From NCBI GenBank assembly GCA_050012475.1, contig JBEKHC010000041.1:1-39137 (forward strand): 39,137 nucleotides of DNA, read 5' to 3'. Below, piece after piece: positions 1 to 10,994 of this stretch. Made by a program: the position numbers and the translations under genes. Under the pieces are notes generated by a model. The model worked only from the letters and a program-made list of their open reading frames with translations. It made no database searches and was not told where the DNA came from. This stretch comes from Candidatus Velthaea sp. (GTDB lineage: Bacteria; Vulcanimicrobiota; Vulcanimicrobiia; Vulcanimicrobiales; Vulcanimicrobiaceae). Within the stretch, counting starts at the first letter, position 1, and each line of letters begins with the position of its first letter.

Positions 1-197
1 CAGCCGCTCGTTTGACTGATGAGTCGCACAAGGGGCCGTCCGGCAGATCGAGCATCGGCCGCGAGCCGCCGAAGCATTCCCATATAAACGACGAGCCGAT
101 GTGTTTACCGTTTGGCCAGACCCGTGCTGCGGCGTGCGTGTTACTTTTGTGGCAATCACTGCACCACTGGTGTGTGCAGCGATGTCGGGAGGCTCGC

Positions 198-878
198 ATC
201 GCTACTATCAAAGCGGAGCCCTATGCGTTCGATCTCGAACCGGCTCGCGTCGCCCTGGTCATCATCGACATGCAGCGTGACTTTCTTGAACCCGGCGGGT
301 TCGGGGCCGCATTGGGCAACGATGTTTCGCAACTTCGGCGTGCGATCGGGCCGACGCGGCGGTTACTCGAAGCCTCACGCGCAGCCAATATATTCGTCGT
401 TCACACGCGCGAAGGCCACCGGCCCGACCTTGCCGATCTGCCGCCGGCGAAAGCGGCGCGCGGGCGTTTCAAGGTCGGCATCGGCGACCGTGGCCCGATG
501 GGCCGAATCCTCGTTCGCGGCGAAGCCGGACACGATATCATCCCCGAACTTGCGCCGCTGCCCGGGGAACCCGTCGTCGACAAGCCCGGGAAAGGTGCGT
601 TTCACGCCACCGATCTCGACGCGCTGCTCAAGAACCGCGGCATCACGCAGTTGCTCGTCTGTGGCGTGACCACCGAAGTGTGCGTGAACACGACCGTGCG
701 CGAAGCGAACGATCGCGGCTACGACTGTTTGGTGCTCGAGGATTGCACGGGTTCTTATTTCGCGGAGTTTCACCTGATGGGATTGCGCATGATCGCCGCG
801 CAAGGCGGCATCTTCGGCTGGGTCGGCGAGTCGTCGTCGGTCGTCGCCGCACTGCAGCCGCAGGCGGTCGGCGTATGA
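198..878 (+). CDS. trtA: Triuret hydrolase TrtA-like cysteine hydrolase (isochorismatase family); start uncertain (ATC198 after SD, or GTG174)
   Basis: Catalytic Asp/Lys/Cys motifs [21 protein letters not shown]. Carries the TrtA-type rather than BiuH-type residues: [10 protein letters not shown] (F,L,N), TEVC (E), SYF (Y), QGGIFG (I). GGGAGG at 187-192. Confidence 0.85.
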
Positions 879-2458
879 TCGAGACGGAGATGGTCGTCGC
901 CCAGGCCGACACCGCAGTGATTCGTCCGGCCGGTCCCGTTCGTCCGTGGGTCACCGGCGATTGGAACGGCTTTTTCGGCCTCTTCACCAACGTGCTGCTC
1001 AACGTCATCGTGTTGTCGGGCTTGAGCTTGGGCGTCGTGAAACTGCCGCCCGAAATCGTGTTCTCGCGTATTTTGCCGGCGCTGGGCATCGCGCTGCCGA
1101 TCGGCAATCTTTTCTACGCGTGGATGGCCTGGAAACTCGCGAAACGCGAAGGCCGCGATGACGTTACGGCGCTCCCGTACGGACCTAGCGTTCCGCATAT
1201 GTTCATCGTCGTGTTCTTGATCATGCTGCCCGTGTATCTCAAGACCAACGATCCGATTCTGGCTTGGCGCTTGGGTCTGGCCTGGGCGTTCATCATCGGC
1301 TGCGTGGTGTTGGCGGGTGCGTTCATTGGACCGACCATTCGGAAGTACACGCCGCGTGCCGCGATGCTGGGAACGCTCGCCGGGATTTCCATTGCGTTCA
1401 TCTCGATGCGGCCCGCATTTCAAATGTGGGAAGTCGCGTGGCTGGGATTGCTGTCGTTCGGGATCGTGCTCGTCGCCTGGACCGCGAACGTTCGGCTCCC
1501 ATTCGGGCTTCCGGGCGGACTCGTCGCCGTCGTGCTCGGCACGGCCGTCGCGTGGGTGACGACCCTGTTGGGCTGGAGCGATCTCATGCACCCCGCGCAA
1601 GTCGGCGCGGCGCTGGGCACGTTTGGCTTGCATCTGCCTCGGCCGTCGGGCGACGTGATCAGCGGCCTGCGCGATATCGGACCGCTGCTGGTCACCGCGA
1701 TTCCGCTTGGCATTTACAACTTCACCGAAGGGATGAACAACGTCGAGAGTGCCGCTGCGGCGGGCGACAACTACGATCTGCGCCAAGTGCTCATCGCCGA
1801 CGGTTCAGGCGCGATCATCGGGTCGCTGTTGGGAAGTCCGTTTCCGCCCGCGGTGTACATCGGGCATCCGGGTTGGAAATCCGTCGGCGGCCGCATCGGC
1901 TACTCGCTGGCGACCGGTGTCGTCATCGCCGTCGTCTGTTTTCTGGGCTTGACCGCATTGCTCTTGGCGGTCGTGCCGCTCGTCGCGATTCTGCCGATTT
2001 TGCTCTACATCGGTTTGGTGATCGGATCGCAGGCGTTTCAAACCACGCCCGCCCGGCACGCACCCGCCGTCGTTTTGGCGCTGCTGCCGAACATTGCGGC
2101 GTGGGCGCAGTCGCAGATCGACGGCGCCCTGGGTGCGGCCGGCACCACAGCGGCGAAGGTCGGGATGGACAAGCTCATGGACAACGGCGTGGTCTATCAC
2201 GGGATGGCGCTGCTCGGAGGAGGTGCGGTGCTCGCCGGGCTCATTCTCGGTGCGATTCTCGTGTTCATCATCGATCGGCGCTTCGATCGCGCCGCGGTCT
2301 ACGCGGTCGCGGGAGCCGTGCTGTCGTTCTTCGGCTTCATTCACGGAACGTCGCTGGGCGTCGGCGCATCGACGCAAGTCGCGATCGGATATCTCTTCCT
2401 AGCGGTCATCTGCGTGGCGCTCGGCTTGAGAAATCGTGCGCCGCAGCCTGTCGCCTGA
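875..2458 (+). CDS. NCS2/xanthine-uracil-like permease, probable triuret/biuret-family substrate importer
   Basis: Many hydrophobic helices; [30 protein letters not shown] motifs; ATGA overlap with the trtA stop. Confidence 0.8.
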
Positions 2459-3221
2459 CGTCGCGACGATCGCTGCCGAACTCGAAGCTGCACGGCGGGG
2501 CCGGCGAGCGATTGCGCCGCCGGCGGAACTGGCAGCGCTGACGCTTTCCGAAGCCTACGACATTCAAGATTTCGCCACCGCGCGCCGCGAGTCGGCTGGA
2601 GCGGTGCGTTCGGGTTGGAAGCTGGGACTGACGAGCCGCGTGAAGCAGCGCGCGATGGGCATCGACCATCCGCTGTTTGCACCGCTCTTCACGGATGGAT
2701 TGCTCGCCAGCAGCAGCCGCGTGCTCTACTCGGGCTTCATTCGGCCGCGCGCCGAACCGGAGCTCGCGTTCGGTCTCAAAGCGCCGCTCGACGGCGCCGG
2801 GGATGTCGATTCACTCATGGAGGCGGTCGCGTGGATCGCCCCGGCGCTGGAGATCACCGACAGCCGCTATCTCCCCGGTTCGCGCTCGGCCGTCGAACTC
2901 GTCGCCGATCATGCTTCGGGAGCAGCCTACGTCATCGGCGGCCGGGTGCGCTTCGACGCCGCAACGCGCCTCGACGCCATCGGCACGCAGATCATTCGCG
3001 ACGGCAGCGTGCTCGCCGGCGGAACGACCGCCGATGTCCTCGGCGATCCGTTTGCCGCGCTGCAATTGCTCGCCGAGCATTTGGGGACCCGCGGCTTTCA
3101 CACCAAGGCCGGCGATGTCGTTTTGAGCGGCGCGATTACGGACGCCTTCCCGGCCGCACCCGGCGACCGCTTCGAGGCGCGGTTGCGCGGACTCGGCACG
3201 GCCTCGGTCGTCTTCGTCTAA
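2436..3221 (+). CDS. FAH-superfamily protein, 2-keto-4-pentenoate hydratase / 4-oxalocrotonate decarboxylase subgroup
   Basis: GWKLGLTS, PRAEPELAF, LEITDSRY, VLGDP, GDVVLSG motifs; overlaps the permease stop. Confidence 0.85.
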   Translation: MRRSLSPDVATIAAELEAARRGRRAIAPPAELAALTLSEAYDIQDFATARRESAGAVRSGWKLGLTSRVKQRAMGIDHPLFAPLFTDGLLASSSRVLYSGFIRPRAEPELAFGLKAPLDGAGDVDSLMEAVAWIAPALEITDSRYLPGSRSAVELVADHASGAAYVIGGRVRFDAATRLDAIGTQIIRDGSVLAGGTTADVLGDPFAALQLLAEHLGTRGFHTKAGDVVLSGAITDAFPAAPGDRFEARLRGLGTASVVFV

Positions 3222-3281: not shown

Positions 3282-3473
3282 ATGAGCGATGCTCCTCCGC
3301 AAGCGATCACGGCATACGTCGAGGCTGCAGCCGTGTTGACGAAGCTGCCGCTCGACGCCGATCGCGTGCACGCTGCAGCGGTGGCGATGACCCGGATCGC
3401 GGACTTCGCAGCGGACGTCGAAGCGTTCGCGCTGGGCGACGACGTCGAGATCGCCGGCACGTTCCCGGCGTGA
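3282..3473 (+). CDS. atzG: AtzG-like (DUF4089) small accessory subunit
   Basis: 63 aa helical protein (YVEAAAVLTKLPL...EIAGTFPA) whose stop overlaps the atzE start (GTGA). Confidence 0.75.
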   Translation: MSDAPPQAITAYVEAAAVLTKLPLDADRVHAAAVAMTRIADFAADVEAFALGDDVEIAGTFPA

Positions 3474-4819
3474 ACGCGCTCGAACTTGCCGGCGCGGTGC
3501 GCAAGCGGTTGATGACGGCGCGCAAAGTCGCCGAAACGACGCTGAGCCGGATCGCCGCGACCGACGCGCGGCTGGCGGCGTTCACCGCGGTCTTCCCCGA
3601 ACGTGCGATGACGCGCGCCGCGCATCTCGATGCGGAGATTGCCGCCGGCCGCGACCCCGGTCCGCTCGCCGGCGTGCCGTTCGCGGCGAAGAATTTGTTC
3701 GATGTTGCGGGCATCGTGACGCGCGCCGGAGCGAAGGTGACCGCCGGACACCATCCGGCAGCGCGCGACGCGGATGCCGTCGCCGCGCTCGAAGCACGCG
3801 GCGCCATCCTCGTCGGCGTCACCAACATGGATGAATTCGCGTACGGGTTCGTGACCGAAAATGCGCACGACGGAACGACGCGCAATCCGCACGACCTCGA
3901 GCGCATTGCGGGCGGCTCGTCCGGCGGTTCGGCGGCGGCGGTGGCCGCCGATCTCGTTCCGCTTGCGCTGGCGTCGGACACCAACGGCTCGATTCGCGTC
4001 CCCGCCGCGCTGTGCGGAATCTTCGGCATCCGGCCGACGTTCGGGCGGCTCTCGCGCCGCGGAGCGTTTCCCTTTGCCAGCAGTCTCGACACGGTCGGTC
4101 CGTTTGCCCGGACGGCGACGGATTTGTGCGCGGCGTACGCGGCGCTCGACGCGAGCTTTTCTCCGTATACGGGAGAACTCGCCGGCCTGCGGTTTGCCCG
4201 CCTGGGCGGATACTTCGATACGGGTCTCACGCGCGAAGCCCGGCGTGCGGTCGAGCATGTTTGCGCGGCGCTGGGCGCGGTCGACGACGGCACCCTCGAT
4301 GAAGCCGCGCGGGCCCGGCAGGCCGCCTTCATCATCACCGGCGCGGAAGGCGGAGAACTGCACGCTGCGCGGCTCCGCACGAACGCCGACGAATTCGATC
4401 CTGCGACGCGCGACCGGCTGGCTGCCGGCGCGCTGTTGCCCGCGGCGTGGTACATCCGCGCGCAACGCTTCCGCTCGTGGTTCCGCGAGCATCTCGCGGA
4501 ATGCTTCACCCACATCGATGTGCTCGTTGCTCCGGCGACGCCGTTTTCCGCAACGCTGGTCGGACAGCGTTCGCTCGTCGTCGACGGCCTCGACATCGAA
4601 ATCCGGCCGAATCTCGGTGTCTTCACCCAACCGCTGTCGCTCGCCGGCGTTCCGGTCGCGACGGTACCCGTGATTGCGCCGGACACGCTGCCGCTCGGCG
4701 TGCAACTGATCGGGCGCGCCGGCAGCGAAAACGTGCTGCTTGCACTCGCCATGGAGTTGGAACGGCGCGGCGTCGTCGGCGCCGGAGCCCCCTCCGCGCT
4801 GCTCGCGACGGCCAGGTAA
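3470..4819 (+). CDS. atzE: AtzE-family amidase (1-carboxybiuret hydrolase-like)
   Basis: Amidase signature AKNLFD, NMDEFAYGF, GGSSGGS, SDTNGSIRVP; preceded by an atzG-like gene. Confidence 0.85.
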   Translation: MNALELAGAVRKRLMTARKVAETTLSRIAATDARLAAFTAVFPERAMTRAAHLDAEIAAGRDPGPLAGVPFAAKNLFDVAGIVTRAGAKVTAGHHPAARDADAVAALEARGAILVGVTNMDEFAYGFVTENAHDGTTRNPHDLERIAGGSSGGSAAAVAADLVPLALASDTNGSIRVPAALCGIFGIRPTFGRLSRRGAFPFASSLDTVGPFARTATDLCAAYAALDASFSPYTGELAGLRFARLGGYFDTGLTREARRAVEHVCAALGAVDDGTLDEAARARQAAFIITGAEGGELHAARLRTNADEFDPATRDRLAAGALLPAAWYIRAQRFRSWFREHLAECFTHIDVLVAPATPFSATLVGQRSLVVDGLDIEIRPNLGVFTQPLSLAGVPVATVPVIAPDTLPLGVQLIGRAGSENVLLALAMELERRGVVGAGAPSALLATAR

Positions 4820-4832
4820 CGCGCCGGCCACG

Positions 4833-6188
4833 GTGCGCACCGGCAGCGAGGCGTTGCCCGCATTCTATGCGTCGGGCGGCAGCGTTCACGAGCGTTTGGG
4901 CGAGGTTCACGCCGCGATCGATCTGCGCGATCCGGTCTGGATCGCCGCGGTTTCGGACGTCGCGCTGGGCGAACGCACGCGGGCGCTCGATGCGCTCGGG
5001 CCCGCGGCGCGCGCAGCGCTGCCGCTGTTCGGCATGCCGTTCGCCGTCAAGGACAACATCGATGTCGCGGGCTTGCCCACCACGGCGGGCTGCCCGGCAT
5101 TCGCCTATGCCCCGGCGCGCTCGGCGACCGTCGTCGAGCGGCTCGAACGAGCCGGCGCCGTCGTCCTGGGCAAGACGAATCTCGACCAGTTCGCGACCGG
5201 TTTGGTCGGCACGCGTTCGCCCTACGGCGTGCCCGCCAATCCATTCGATCCGGCCTACATTCCGGGCGGGTCGAGTTCGGGTTCGGCGGTCGCCGTCGCG
5301 CGCGGATTCGTCAGCTTTGCGCTCGGAACGGATACCGCCGGTTCGGGCCGCGTTCCGGCGGGTTTTACCGGAACGATCGGCGTCAAGCCCACGCACGGTA
5401 TCATCAGTGCCGCGGGTGTCGTGCCCGCGTGCCGTTCGCTCGACTGCGTCTCGATCTTCGTGCGCACGCTCGACGAAGCGGCGCTGATCCTCGATGTCGC
5501 GGCCGCGCCCGATCCGCGCGATCCGTTCTCGCGCGAGCGGCCGGCGGCGGCCGCCGTCGGGCTGGCCGCGGACCCAGCGCGACCGTTCGTTTTCGCGGTG
5601 CCGCTGCCCGAACAGCGCATCTTTTTCGGCGACGACGAAGCGCGCGACCAATTCGAGCGGTCGATCGCGCGGCTCGTCGCGCGCGGCGGCAGCGCGCTGG
5701 ACGTGGACCTCGCCTGCTGCTTCGAGGCGGCCGCATTGCTCTACGACGGCCCCTTCGTCGCCGAGCGCACCGCGGCGGTCGGCGATTTCGTCGATGCGCA
5801 TCCCGAGGCGGTCCTGGACGTCACCCGGACAATCGTGCAAAGCGGGCGCCGCTACAGCGCCGTCGACACCTTTTCAGCGTTGTACGAGCTGCGCGCGTTG
5901 CGCAATGCGGCGGCGGAGATTTTCGCCCGCGCAGCGATTCTCGTCGTGCCCACGAGCCCGACGATCTATCGGATAAGCCAGATCGAAGCCGAGCCGTTCC
6001 TCTACAATTCACGCCTGGGGACGTACACCAATTTCGTCAATCTGCTCGATCTTTGCGCGCTTGCCGTGCCGGCCGGCGCGTACGCCGGCGGAGTGCCGAT
6101 CGGCGTAACGTTCATCGCGCCGGCCTTTGCGGACGCGTCCCTGCTGGCGTTCGCGCGCCGGTTTCTCCAGGAACCGCCAGTCGCTTAG
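4833..6188 (+). CDS. atzF: Allophanate hydrolase, amidase domain only
   Basis: KDNIDV, KTNLDQFATGLVGTRSPYG, GGSSSGS, GTDTAGSGRVP, LGTYTNFVNLLD; about 451 aa with no C-terminal domain. Confidence 0.9.
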   Translation: MRTGSEALPAFYASGGSVHERLGEVHAAIDLRDPVWIAAVSDVALGERTRALDALGPAARAALPLFGMPFAVKDNIDVAGLPTTAGCPAFAYAPARSATVVERLERAGAVVLGKTNLDQFATGLVGTRSPYGVPANPFDPAYIPGGSSSGSAVAVARGFVSFALGTDTAGSGRVPAGFTGTIGVKPTHGIISAAGVVPACRSLDCVSIFVRTLDEAALILDVAAAPDPRDPFSRERPAAAAVGLAADPARPFVFAVPLPEQRIFFGDDEARDQFERSIARLVARGGSALDVDLACCFEAAALLYDGPFVAERTAAVGDFVDAHPEAVLDVTRTIVQSGRRYSAVDTFSALYELRALRNAAAEIFARAAILVVPTSPTIYRISQIEAEPFLYNSRLGTYTNFVNLLDLCALAVPAGAYAGGVPIGVTFIAPAFADASLLAFARRFLQEPPVA

Positions 6189-10388: not shown

Positions 10389-10417
10389 TTGTCAGCTGCG
10401 AACTAGCTGCGTATTCT
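10389..10417 (+). promoter_or_regulatory. Sigma70-type promoter of the TA operon with a palindromic operator in the spacer; likely leaderless transcript
   Basis: TTGTCA (10389-94), 17 nt, TATTCT (10412-17); GTG start follows after 7 nt; CAGCT-N7-AGCTG at 10393-10409. Confidence 0.65.
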
Positions 10418-10424
10418 AGGTGCG

Positions 10425-10655
10425 GTGAGAGCCGTCGGCATTTTCGAGGCAAAGACGCACTTTTCTGCCCTCGTCGATGATGCCGAGCGCGGCCGATCGA
10501 CGCTCGTCACGCGGAAAGGAAGGCCCGTCGCTCGAATTATGGCAGTCGTCGATCCCAAGCCGCGCGAATTCGGATTTGATGACGGGCTGGGTTCTATCGC
10601 TGACGATTTTGACGCTCAGCTGCCGCGCGACGTGCTCGAGCCGTACCGTTCGTGA
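10425..10655 (+). CDS. Phd/YefM family antitoxin
   Basis: VGIFEAKTHFSALVD..GRSTLVTRKGRPVARI with an acidic C-terminus (IADDFDAQLP). Confidence 0.9.
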   Translation: MRAVGIFEAKTHFSALVDDAERGRSTLVTRKGRPVARIMAVVDPKPREFGFDDGLGSIADDFDAQLPRDVLEPYRS

Positions 10656-10994
10656 TTTGCGCTCGCAATTGGTCGAGCAGCGCGTGCGCACCGTGCTTGC
10701 CGATCCGGCCAATTTGGTCCATGCGTCGGCGGTTTCCACCTGGGAGATCGTGGTGAAATGCGGGTCGGGGCAGCTCGGTCTTTCCGGCGATTACGTCGCC
10801 GACCGGATCCGGCGGGCGGGACTGACGATTCTCCCGCTCGTTCCGGCGCACACGCTGGGCGTGTTGACCCTGCCGCCGCATCACGGCGATCCCTTCGACC
10901 GCCTTCTGATTGCTCGGGCGCAGGTCGAAGCGATGATCTTCGTAACCAACGACCGGATTTCGAGGAATACGACGTCATGCGGCTGATGACGTAA
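10651..10994 (+). pseudogene. vapC: VapC (PIN) toxin remnant: N-terminus lost and C-terminal frameshift
   Basis: SAVSTWEIVVK, HGDPFDRLLIARA and VTND are present. The N-terminal LLDTH strand is absent. The expected tail DFEEYDV lies in another frame ending at 10994. Confidence 0.75.

Follow-up and report, generated by a model that had tools for sequence, protein, structure and literature searches.

An AtzEG-linked clade of FAH-fold proteins in Vulcanimicrobiota, predicted to act as N-carboxy-ureide decarboxylases

In the described route of triuret breakdown, TrtA converts triuret to 1-carboxybiuret, AtzEG converts this to 1,3-dicarboxyurea, decarboxylation to allophanate follows with AtzH contributing only a gain in rate, and AtzF releases ammonia (PMC7948467 and PMC6219798, in the portions of these papers available). 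The substrate of the decarboxylation is too unstable for direct assay. AtzH, TrtB and HpxZ have the NTF2 fold (PF11533), whereas the FAH superfamily, to which NahK/DmpH, MhpD/DmpE and HpcG belong, is unrelated to them in fold and size. The superfamily also includes a ureidoglycolate lyase, a precedent for a ureide substrate. We have analysed an FAH-fold gene on contig JBEKHC010000041.1 of Candidatus Velthaea sp. (39,137 nucleotides, hereafter the window), where it lies in an operon of the order trtA–permease–FAH–atzG–atzE–atzF whose genes overlap or are closely spaced. To judge from its sequence and surroundings, the clade to which this gene belongs probably works like AtzH: as a companion of atzG-atzE, the FAH protein is predicted to speed the decarboxylation of an unstable N-carboxy-ureide, with 261 residues on an FAH scaffold in place of the roughly 127 of the NTF2 proteins.

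In full-text searches, with subscription literature outside their scope, no paper was found to suggest that a protein of the FAH fold takes the place of AtzH. In ammonia-oxidising archaea an FAH gene beside biuH/atzF has been suggested to 'function in ureide degradation' (PMC12625717); the available part of that paper proposes no reaction, the context is biuH/atzF and not atzG-atzE, and our comparison is with the description only.

The open reading frame begins with GTG, overlaps the permease gene by 23 nucleotides and starts in the same register as its close relatives. Its product matched PF01557 (FAA_hydrolase; 44.9 bits against a cut-off of 23.9) and nothing else in a Pfam scan, PF11533 included. 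The best solved relatives are NahK (PDB 5D2F; E 4e-37), MhpD, 8IH6 and HpcG. A structure model built with 146 sequences (predicted local distance difference test score 95.4) matched these four with template-modelling (TM) scores of 0.91-0.94, Z-scores of 36-38 and root-mean-square deviations of 1.5-2.0 over 256-259 residues; other FAH proteins gave Z-scores of at most 19. The model has the N-terminal helical domain of the MhpD/NahK/HpcG branch, and the protein is a member of that branch of the superfamily, which confirms the FAH-fold gene first noticed in a sequence-only reading of the window. It does not belong to the DmpH, MhpD or AtzH families. Its scores with the MhpD, DmpH, DmpE and HpaH equivalog models are under half of all four cut-offs: 161.8 bits against 350.55 for TIGR03218 (4-oxalocrotonate decarboxylase DmpH/NahK), and 133-138 against 350-409 for the 2-keto-4-pentenoate hydratases (MhpD/DmpE/HpaH). 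The gene and the parts of it that matter here are as follows.

2436..3221, plus strand: FAH-fold protein of the AtzEG-linked clade, a predicted N-carboxy-ureide decarboxylase (from fold, residues, clade and context)
2619..2645, plus strand: K62-L-G-L-T-S-R-V-K70, equivalent to NahK K64/K72 (NahK alignment)
2754..2852, plus strand: E107, E109 and E139, equivalent to NahK E109/E111/E142 (alignment)
2877..2918, plus strand: clade segment G148-x-R150-x-A152-x-E154-L155, then a private H159 and the conserved S161

All the motifs listed in the earlier reading, E107-x-E109...E139, KLGLTSRVK (K62 and K70) and ADHAS (H159), are present. K62 is found in 100% and K70 in 99% of the clade; E107, E109 and E139, whose equivalents we take to be metal ligands, are invariant in it and 98-99% conserved in the outgroups; R144, D158 and S161, the equivalent of NahK S164, are also retained, so the window protein has the second lysine and the serine of DmpH/NahK. 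The rule, given in that reading, that the second lysine goes with the decarboxylase branch was borne out among 391 outgroup proteins: K70 and the decarboxylase-type F-x-F segment occur together in 163 (K/F/F), and the W-x-I hydratase types have M (108), V (24) or I (22) at position 70. At the level of sequence, K70 marks the decarboxylase type. MhpD/DmpE and HpcG share the metal-site glutamates and the first lysine with the window protein, which differs in its second lysine (Val in MhpD) and in having G-x-R and not W-x-I.

The segment after DSRY is where the clade departs from its relatives. Clade-specific changes are found there at G148, R150, A152, E154 and L155, and also at T141 and T160; the outgroup version of the segment reads F/W-x-F/I-x-L-x-D. 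R150 is present in 98% of the clade and 1% of proteins outside it, G148 in 95% and 2%, and E154 in 92% and 2%. The NahK residues opposite G148 and R150 in the alignment are F151 and F153, which presumably line the substrate pocket, and the Phe-x-Phe of DmpH/NahK is thus Gly-x-Arg in the clade. The ADHAS motif did not keep the significance first attached to it: residue 159 in 113 clade proteins is N in 98, C in 5, H in one and T in one, with 8 unparsed, so ADHAS is private to the species, says nothing about clade specificity and was discarded as a specificity mark. It is genuine DNA. Contigs of runs X1 and X3, the two sets that span the codon and one of which may be the window's source, show no other letter at 2910-2912; pieces that together make up most of the operon are present, with few differences, in the contigs of four runs.

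About 113 proteins, among the best 120 of 282 matches listed, are at least 48% identical to the window protein, after which identity drops to at most 42%. The 103 full-length members form one monophyletic group in a tree of 494 sequences (support 1.0, stem 0.47), and their sister group (support 0.88) consists of long-branch orphans from unrelated contexts, two of which (P0125 and P0248) also have R150. Of the best 150 hits in a profile search of 1.84 billion representatives, only three are single-domain members of the clade (P0054, and P0112 and P0131, which are both partial); the tandem-FAH proteins P0121 and P0123 were set aside, having scored highly only through their two domains. Seven clade loci among the 80 best GTDB matches come from Vulcanimicrobiota/Eremiobacterota or unclassified metagenome-assembled genomes. 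The clade occurs in 6 of 401 genomes of the phylum and 8 of 348 of the host family; all eight of the latter carry atzE (seven by search, one in frameshifted pieces), a gene found at E<=1e-90 in 11 of the 348. At least half of the sampled words of the window are present in eight soil or peat runs from seven studies, and there was no RNA run among the listed runs sharing window words.

We compared 17 clade loci (L040-L046 and L120-L129) with 143 loci of non-clade FAH genes. atzE is adjacent to the FAH gene in 12 of the 17, and in the other five the contig ends within about 1 kb of it; for L046, the rest of the cassette is on a second contig of its genome. trtA, the permease gene, atzG, atzE and atzF are absent from all 143 non-clade loci. 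Conversely, meta-cleavage markers are found in 93 of these 143 and in none of 18 clade stretches, the whole window included, where six marker queries were negative over 39 kb. The description of the gene as an MhpD/4-oxalocrotonate-decarboxylase-type gene in a ureide operon, with no meta-cleavage genes nearby, therefore stands, and meta-cleavage operons, which had been named as the setting of its homologues that would speak against a ureide role, never harbour the clade.

This bears on whether the FAH protein is simply a 4-oxalocrotonate decarboxylase or 2-oxopentenoate hydratase, as its relatives are labelled by JGI. Besides those names, the fold (TM 0.94 and Z 38), the catalytic core and an identity of about 33-36% with NahK agree with such a role, but it is scarcely credible given the equivalog scores, the contrast in markers and the loss of the F-x-F / W-x-I segment. 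Clade genes have no hydratase partner nearby, and the host genome (G000, 93.8% complete) has a separate, complete phenol hydroxylase/catechol meta-cleavage operon (C10:1336-10589, L038; gene labels from sequence reading) with its own DmpE/DmpH-like hydratase/decarboxylase pair (38% identity). The clade is a sharply bounded subfamily whose members are mis-annotated; its genomic tie to AtzEG is strong, and its active-site segment has been remodelled.

Clade genes occur in four layouts, next to at least eight different upstream neighbours, and atzG-atzE are the constant partners. The first layout, trtA-permease-FAH-atzG-atzE(-atzF), is that of L040 and of the window, where the other genes are these.

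198..878, plus strand: trtA, triuret hydrolase (cysteine hydrolase; PDB match and signature residues), likely ATC start after GGAGG at 188-192
875..2458, plus strand: multi-pass permease of 527 residues, no Pfam or NCBIfam match
3282..3473, plus strand: atzG-like small subunit (PF13318 over cut-off), its stop overlapping the atzE start
3470..4819, plus strand: atzE, amidase of the 1-carboxybiuret hydrolase family (TIGR02715, 587 against a cut-off of 426)
4833..6188, plus strand: atzF, allophanate hydrolase with the amidase domain only (TIGR02713, 567 against 511), start position uncertain

The second layout is FAH-atzG-atzE-atzF-deaminase-atzD-uridine phosphorylase (L043 and L045, with atzG not called in L045). 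In the third and commonest (10 loci), the FAH gene faces the gene of a binding protein of the NMT1 type, often accompanied by one for a type II haloacid dehalogenase (HAD), and this side is divergent from atzG-atzE-atzF and the ATPase and permease genes of an ATP-binding cassette (ABC) importer. The fourth is FAH-atzG-atzE alone (L120). This unit without atzF, in L040 and L120, is comparable to the atzG-atzE-atzH clusters described in the available text of PMC6219798; atzF is adjacent in 10 loci, window included. Enzymes that make 1-carboxybiuret are encoded in some of the loci, TrtA in two and AtzD in two. The tie to atz genes proposed in the sequence-only reading thus holds for atzG-atzE and is not supported for trtA.

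The usual companion of AtzEG is missing here. For comparison, 12 of 36 plasmid atzE matches from proteobacteria were picked for different genera, and an AtzH hidden Markov model (HMM) found atzH within 3-3.5 kb in 8 of them (six were in the HMM, two are independent); the FAH clade is in none of the 12. The same model found nothing in 19 host-family stretches (the window and 18 loci), and G000 has no match to it or to PF11533. TrtB, AtzH and HpxZ have been aligned together over 126 positions (PMC12625717, available part), which makes it probable that TrtB, too, falls within the reach of the PF11533 search. The AtzH/TrtB slot to which the FAH gene was assigned is a slot in the pathway and not a position: the gene precedes atzG, while the place of atzH in strain ADP is between atzE and atzF, though the order on a Zymomonas plasmid is atzH-atzG-atzE.

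Because AtzEG is the constant partner, two carboxybiuret-making enzymes are represented and AtzEG's usual companion is absent from the loci, an AtzH analogue is the simplest reading. We propose tentatively, with a confidence that falls a little short of even, that the FAH protein is a metal-dependent 1,3-dicarboxyurea decarboxylase. Imported triuret would be deaminated to 1-carboxybiuret by TrtA and then to 1,3-dicarboxyurea by AtzEG; the FAH protein would take one CO2 off to give allophanate, and AtzF would hydrolyse this and release the nitrogen as ammonia. In the active site we envisage, a metal bound by Glu107/109/139 would chelate the central urea carbonyl and one carboxylate and serve as an electron sink, while the other N-linked carboxyl would depart as CO2 and Lys62/Lys70 would protonate the resulting anion. 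Arg150, in a segment occupied by phenylalanines in NahK, may help to hold the substrate, a short and polar dianion. Acetonedicarboxylate, which was used as an AtzH ligand in PMC6219798 (available text), has 1,3-dicarboxyurea as its di-aza analogue, and AtzH itself has a Tyr22/Arg pocket according to the same text, in contrast to the metal/lysine chemistry predicted for the FAH protein. Such a departure of N-linked CO2, with a carbonyl on the metal taking up the electrons, would parallel the metal-assisted decarboxylation of beta-keto acids described for the oxaloacetate decarboxylase FAHD1 (PMC7115867, available text), although FAHD1 belongs to another branch (Z about 18, 13-15% identity). Among the three substrates first suggested, 1,3-dicarboxyurea fits best and N-carboxycarbamate is possible; 1-carboxybiuret fits poorly because AtzE would be bypassed and no BiuH was found in G000. 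With moderate confidence we propose, more broadly, that a 4-oxalocrotonate-decarboxylase-type enzyme has been re-tooled, Phe-x-Phe becoming Gly-x-Arg, to decarboxylate N-carboxy-ureides with the help of a metal. It would then be a non-homologous substitute for AtzH/HpxZ and the first enzyme of the FAH fold to cleave an N-CO2 bond. Under the same proposal, the form of the cassette that has an ABC importer but lacks TrtA and AtzD would belong to a route not yet described, by which bacteria of acidic soils draw nitrogen from a natural ureide or s-triazine.

Several observations weigh against an AtzH analogue. Characterised members of the MhpD/NahK branch bind, we assume, 2-oxo acids, and dicarboxyurea is not one. 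The predicted anti-correlation with atzH/trtB was not seen at genome level: strong AtzH matches occur in only two of the 401 phylum genomes, G239 (with FAH) and G368 (without), both far from atzE, and a third in G384 is marginal (27.1 bits), so AtzH is found in one of eight FAH genomes and one of four atzE genomes without FAH, and with AtzH so rare in the phylum these counts do not demonstrate mutual exclusion. In G193 (95% complete) and G376 the atzGEF cassette is intact but has neither FAH nor atzH, and both genes are likewise absent from 4 of the 12 proteobacterial loci, one of them a trtA-permease-atzG-atzE run. The G368 cassette also lacks FAH and has frameshifts in atzF and its neighbours, for which decay and read errors are indistinguishable; G275, whose contig begins at the end of atzG, is uninformative. 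No trtA, biuH or atzD was found in four genomes with the commonest layout (G384, G344, G401 and G402), nor in G193 or G376, where the cassette likewise has the ABC arrangement; AtzE thus has no recognised supply of carboxybiuret in these six. The AtzF C-terminal domain is missing too, which leaves two empty slots, and the FAH gene of the commonest layout is a separate transcription unit, without the palindrome found before atzG. Finally, the host-family AtzEs form one clade, so the FAH-atzE association probably arose once, and what we have is evidence of retention through rearrangement with about three losses and not of repeated recruitment. An FAH protein that, like AtzH, only speeded a spontaneous step could be lost from some cassettes, which would explain these absences.

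The single origin, the confinement to one bacterial family, the three cassettes without FAH (G193, G376 and G368) and the separate transcription unit would also suit a passenger, or a loosely related enzyme (an oxaloacetate-type decarboxylase, for instance), that came down with the cassette from a single ancestral event. We regard this as unlikely in view of the retention of the gene through four layouts and at least eight upstream contexts, the lack of any clade genome without atzE (0 of 8) and an active-site segment that has been remodelled and fixed. The correlation of FAH and AtzE distances (Mantel r 0.74, 11 loci) was not counted, kinship explaining it equally well; the two trees differ at weakly supported nodes.

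A different substrate in the same pathway is also conceivable. The FAH protein could act, by decarboxylation or cleavage, on an oxalyl-ureide. This might be N-carboxyoxamate, formed from oxalurate, or a further product of urate oxidation, for example oxonate; the oxamate end of such a compound offers the 2-oxo-acid chelate that FAH enzymes normally bind; the titles of FAH-fold structures name oxalate and pyruvate as ligands. AtzE and HpxY share one HMM family, AtzG scores to HpxX, and the OHCU decarboxylase of urate catabolism is present in 12 of 12 atzE genomes tested. The ABC importer and type II HAD homologue of the commonest layout, in a genome without trtA/atzD, agree with this. The TrtA and AtzD layouts point instead to carboxybiuret, the adjacent atzF requires allophanate, and the clade loci contain nothing resembling hpxW, an observation confined to these loci since no genome-wide search was made; we rate the oxalyl-ureide as rather unlikely. 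Urease is found in 11 of 12 genomes, so urea would be no dead end, and G000 has both urease and urate catabolism genes.

The second empty slot could be the relevant one. The N and C domains of AtzF catalyse sequential steps (PMC5770610, available text), and the C-terminal domain, present in strain ADP, L247 and L251, is missing from every host-family AtzF examined and gave no match in the window or any clade locus. An FAH protein replacing it would break down N-carboxycarbamate, the product of the amidase domain. That is quite improbable, however: L040 and L120 keep FAH with atzG-atzE in the absence of atzF, cassettes without FAH have the same truncated AtzF, and G000 encodes a stand-alone protein like the C-terminal domain (C74:3406-3780, L264; 31%, E 7e-9), its gene directly following an allantoate-amidohydrolase-like gene in a purine catabolism cluster (labels from sequence reading). 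A TrtB-type activity, yielding biuret from 1-carboxybiuret, is very improbable; it would deprive AtzE, whose gene is the constant neighbour, of its substrate, and no BiuH, or paralogue at BiuH level, was found in G000, and none in G145, G287, G344, G384, G401 or G402.

Should the FAH protein be a 1,3-dicarboxyurea decarboxylase, enzyme evolution would have converged at the least understood step of cyanuric acid and triuret mineralisation, and a second, metal-dependent catalyst on a well-studied scaffold would make that step testable. FAH-fold chemistry would be extended from C-C to N-C decarboxylation, some 110 database proteins now labelled as aromatic-degradation enzymes would be corrected, and the finding would point to natural use of triuret and s-triazines by Vulcanimicrobiota (Eremiobacterota) in peat and soil.

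The commonest layout has features of its own. A TGTCC-N4-GGACA palindrome and a CCGTTCGCCNATTG box, likely operator and promoter, lie between the divergent binding-protein gene and atzG (L041:5386-5436), with equivalents in L042, L044, L121, L123, L124, L126, L128, L211, L213, L214 and L215, the palindrome being exact in eight of these loci; no regulator gene was identified. The palindrome is not upstream of the FAH gene nor in the window operon and was rejected as a motif shared with that gene, as were GCGAA[CG], only mildly enriched before starts genome-wide (160 against 87 of 1865), and a sigma-54-like box at 113-127 of the window that is not conserved in L040. The HAD gene is co-transcribed with that of the binding protein in L044 (8750-9415) and six other loci; most of the genomes concerned lack trtA and atzD, and the HAD may be a clue to the natural substrate. 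PDB searches with both proteins gave no substrate clue. The binding-protein, HAD and cupin genes of G368 and the gene after them form one continuous run (L213:11048-13506), from which the FAH gene, placed between HAD and cupin in five other loci, is cleanly absent.

In L043 (8025-14875), L045 (5900-15072) and L212 (844-5307), atzGEF and atzD are clustered with genes for an 8-oxoguanine-deaminase-like amidohydrolase (PRK12393) and a uridine phosphorylase-like protein, joined in L045 by a cytidine deaminase gene; judged by its gene content the cluster is possibly a route for s-triazine nucleosides. An atzD gene in G000 is cut by a contig end (C187:3-680, L219) next to an integrase-like open reading frame, and the missing 3' portion of atzD could not be located in the assembly.

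Turning to the neighbours in the window, TrtA has as its best PDB match TrtA 6XIX (276 bits, against 258 for BiuH 6XJM) and falls below the BiuH equivalog cut-off (281 against 370). Its D24, F29, F35, N41, K129, K132, A134, V157-T158, E160, C162, Y187, Q202 and I205 match the numbering in the available text of PMC7948467, among them the D24/K129/C162 triad and the six positions that separate TrtA from BiuH (F35, N41, A134, E160, Y187 and I205). An ATC start five bases after GGAGG is found in three genomes (window 188-200, L040 about 5170-5182 and L227 about 2604-2616) and is likely, from this comparison, a conserved non-canonical start; the G368 orthologue (L228) has ATG at the codon where the three others have ATC. 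Homologues of the permease adjoin trtA and atzF/atzG/atzE in proteobacterial plasmids (53-55% identity to L247 and L251), which makes it a candidate triuret/ureide transporter; one homologue is annotated 'regulator'. AtzE has AtzE 6C62 as its best PDB match and is 45% identical to that of strain ADP. At about 10400-10986 the window has an apparently broken remnant of a PIN-domain toxin-antitoxin pair, and the toxin gene is intact with its antitoxin in L120, directly after atzE.

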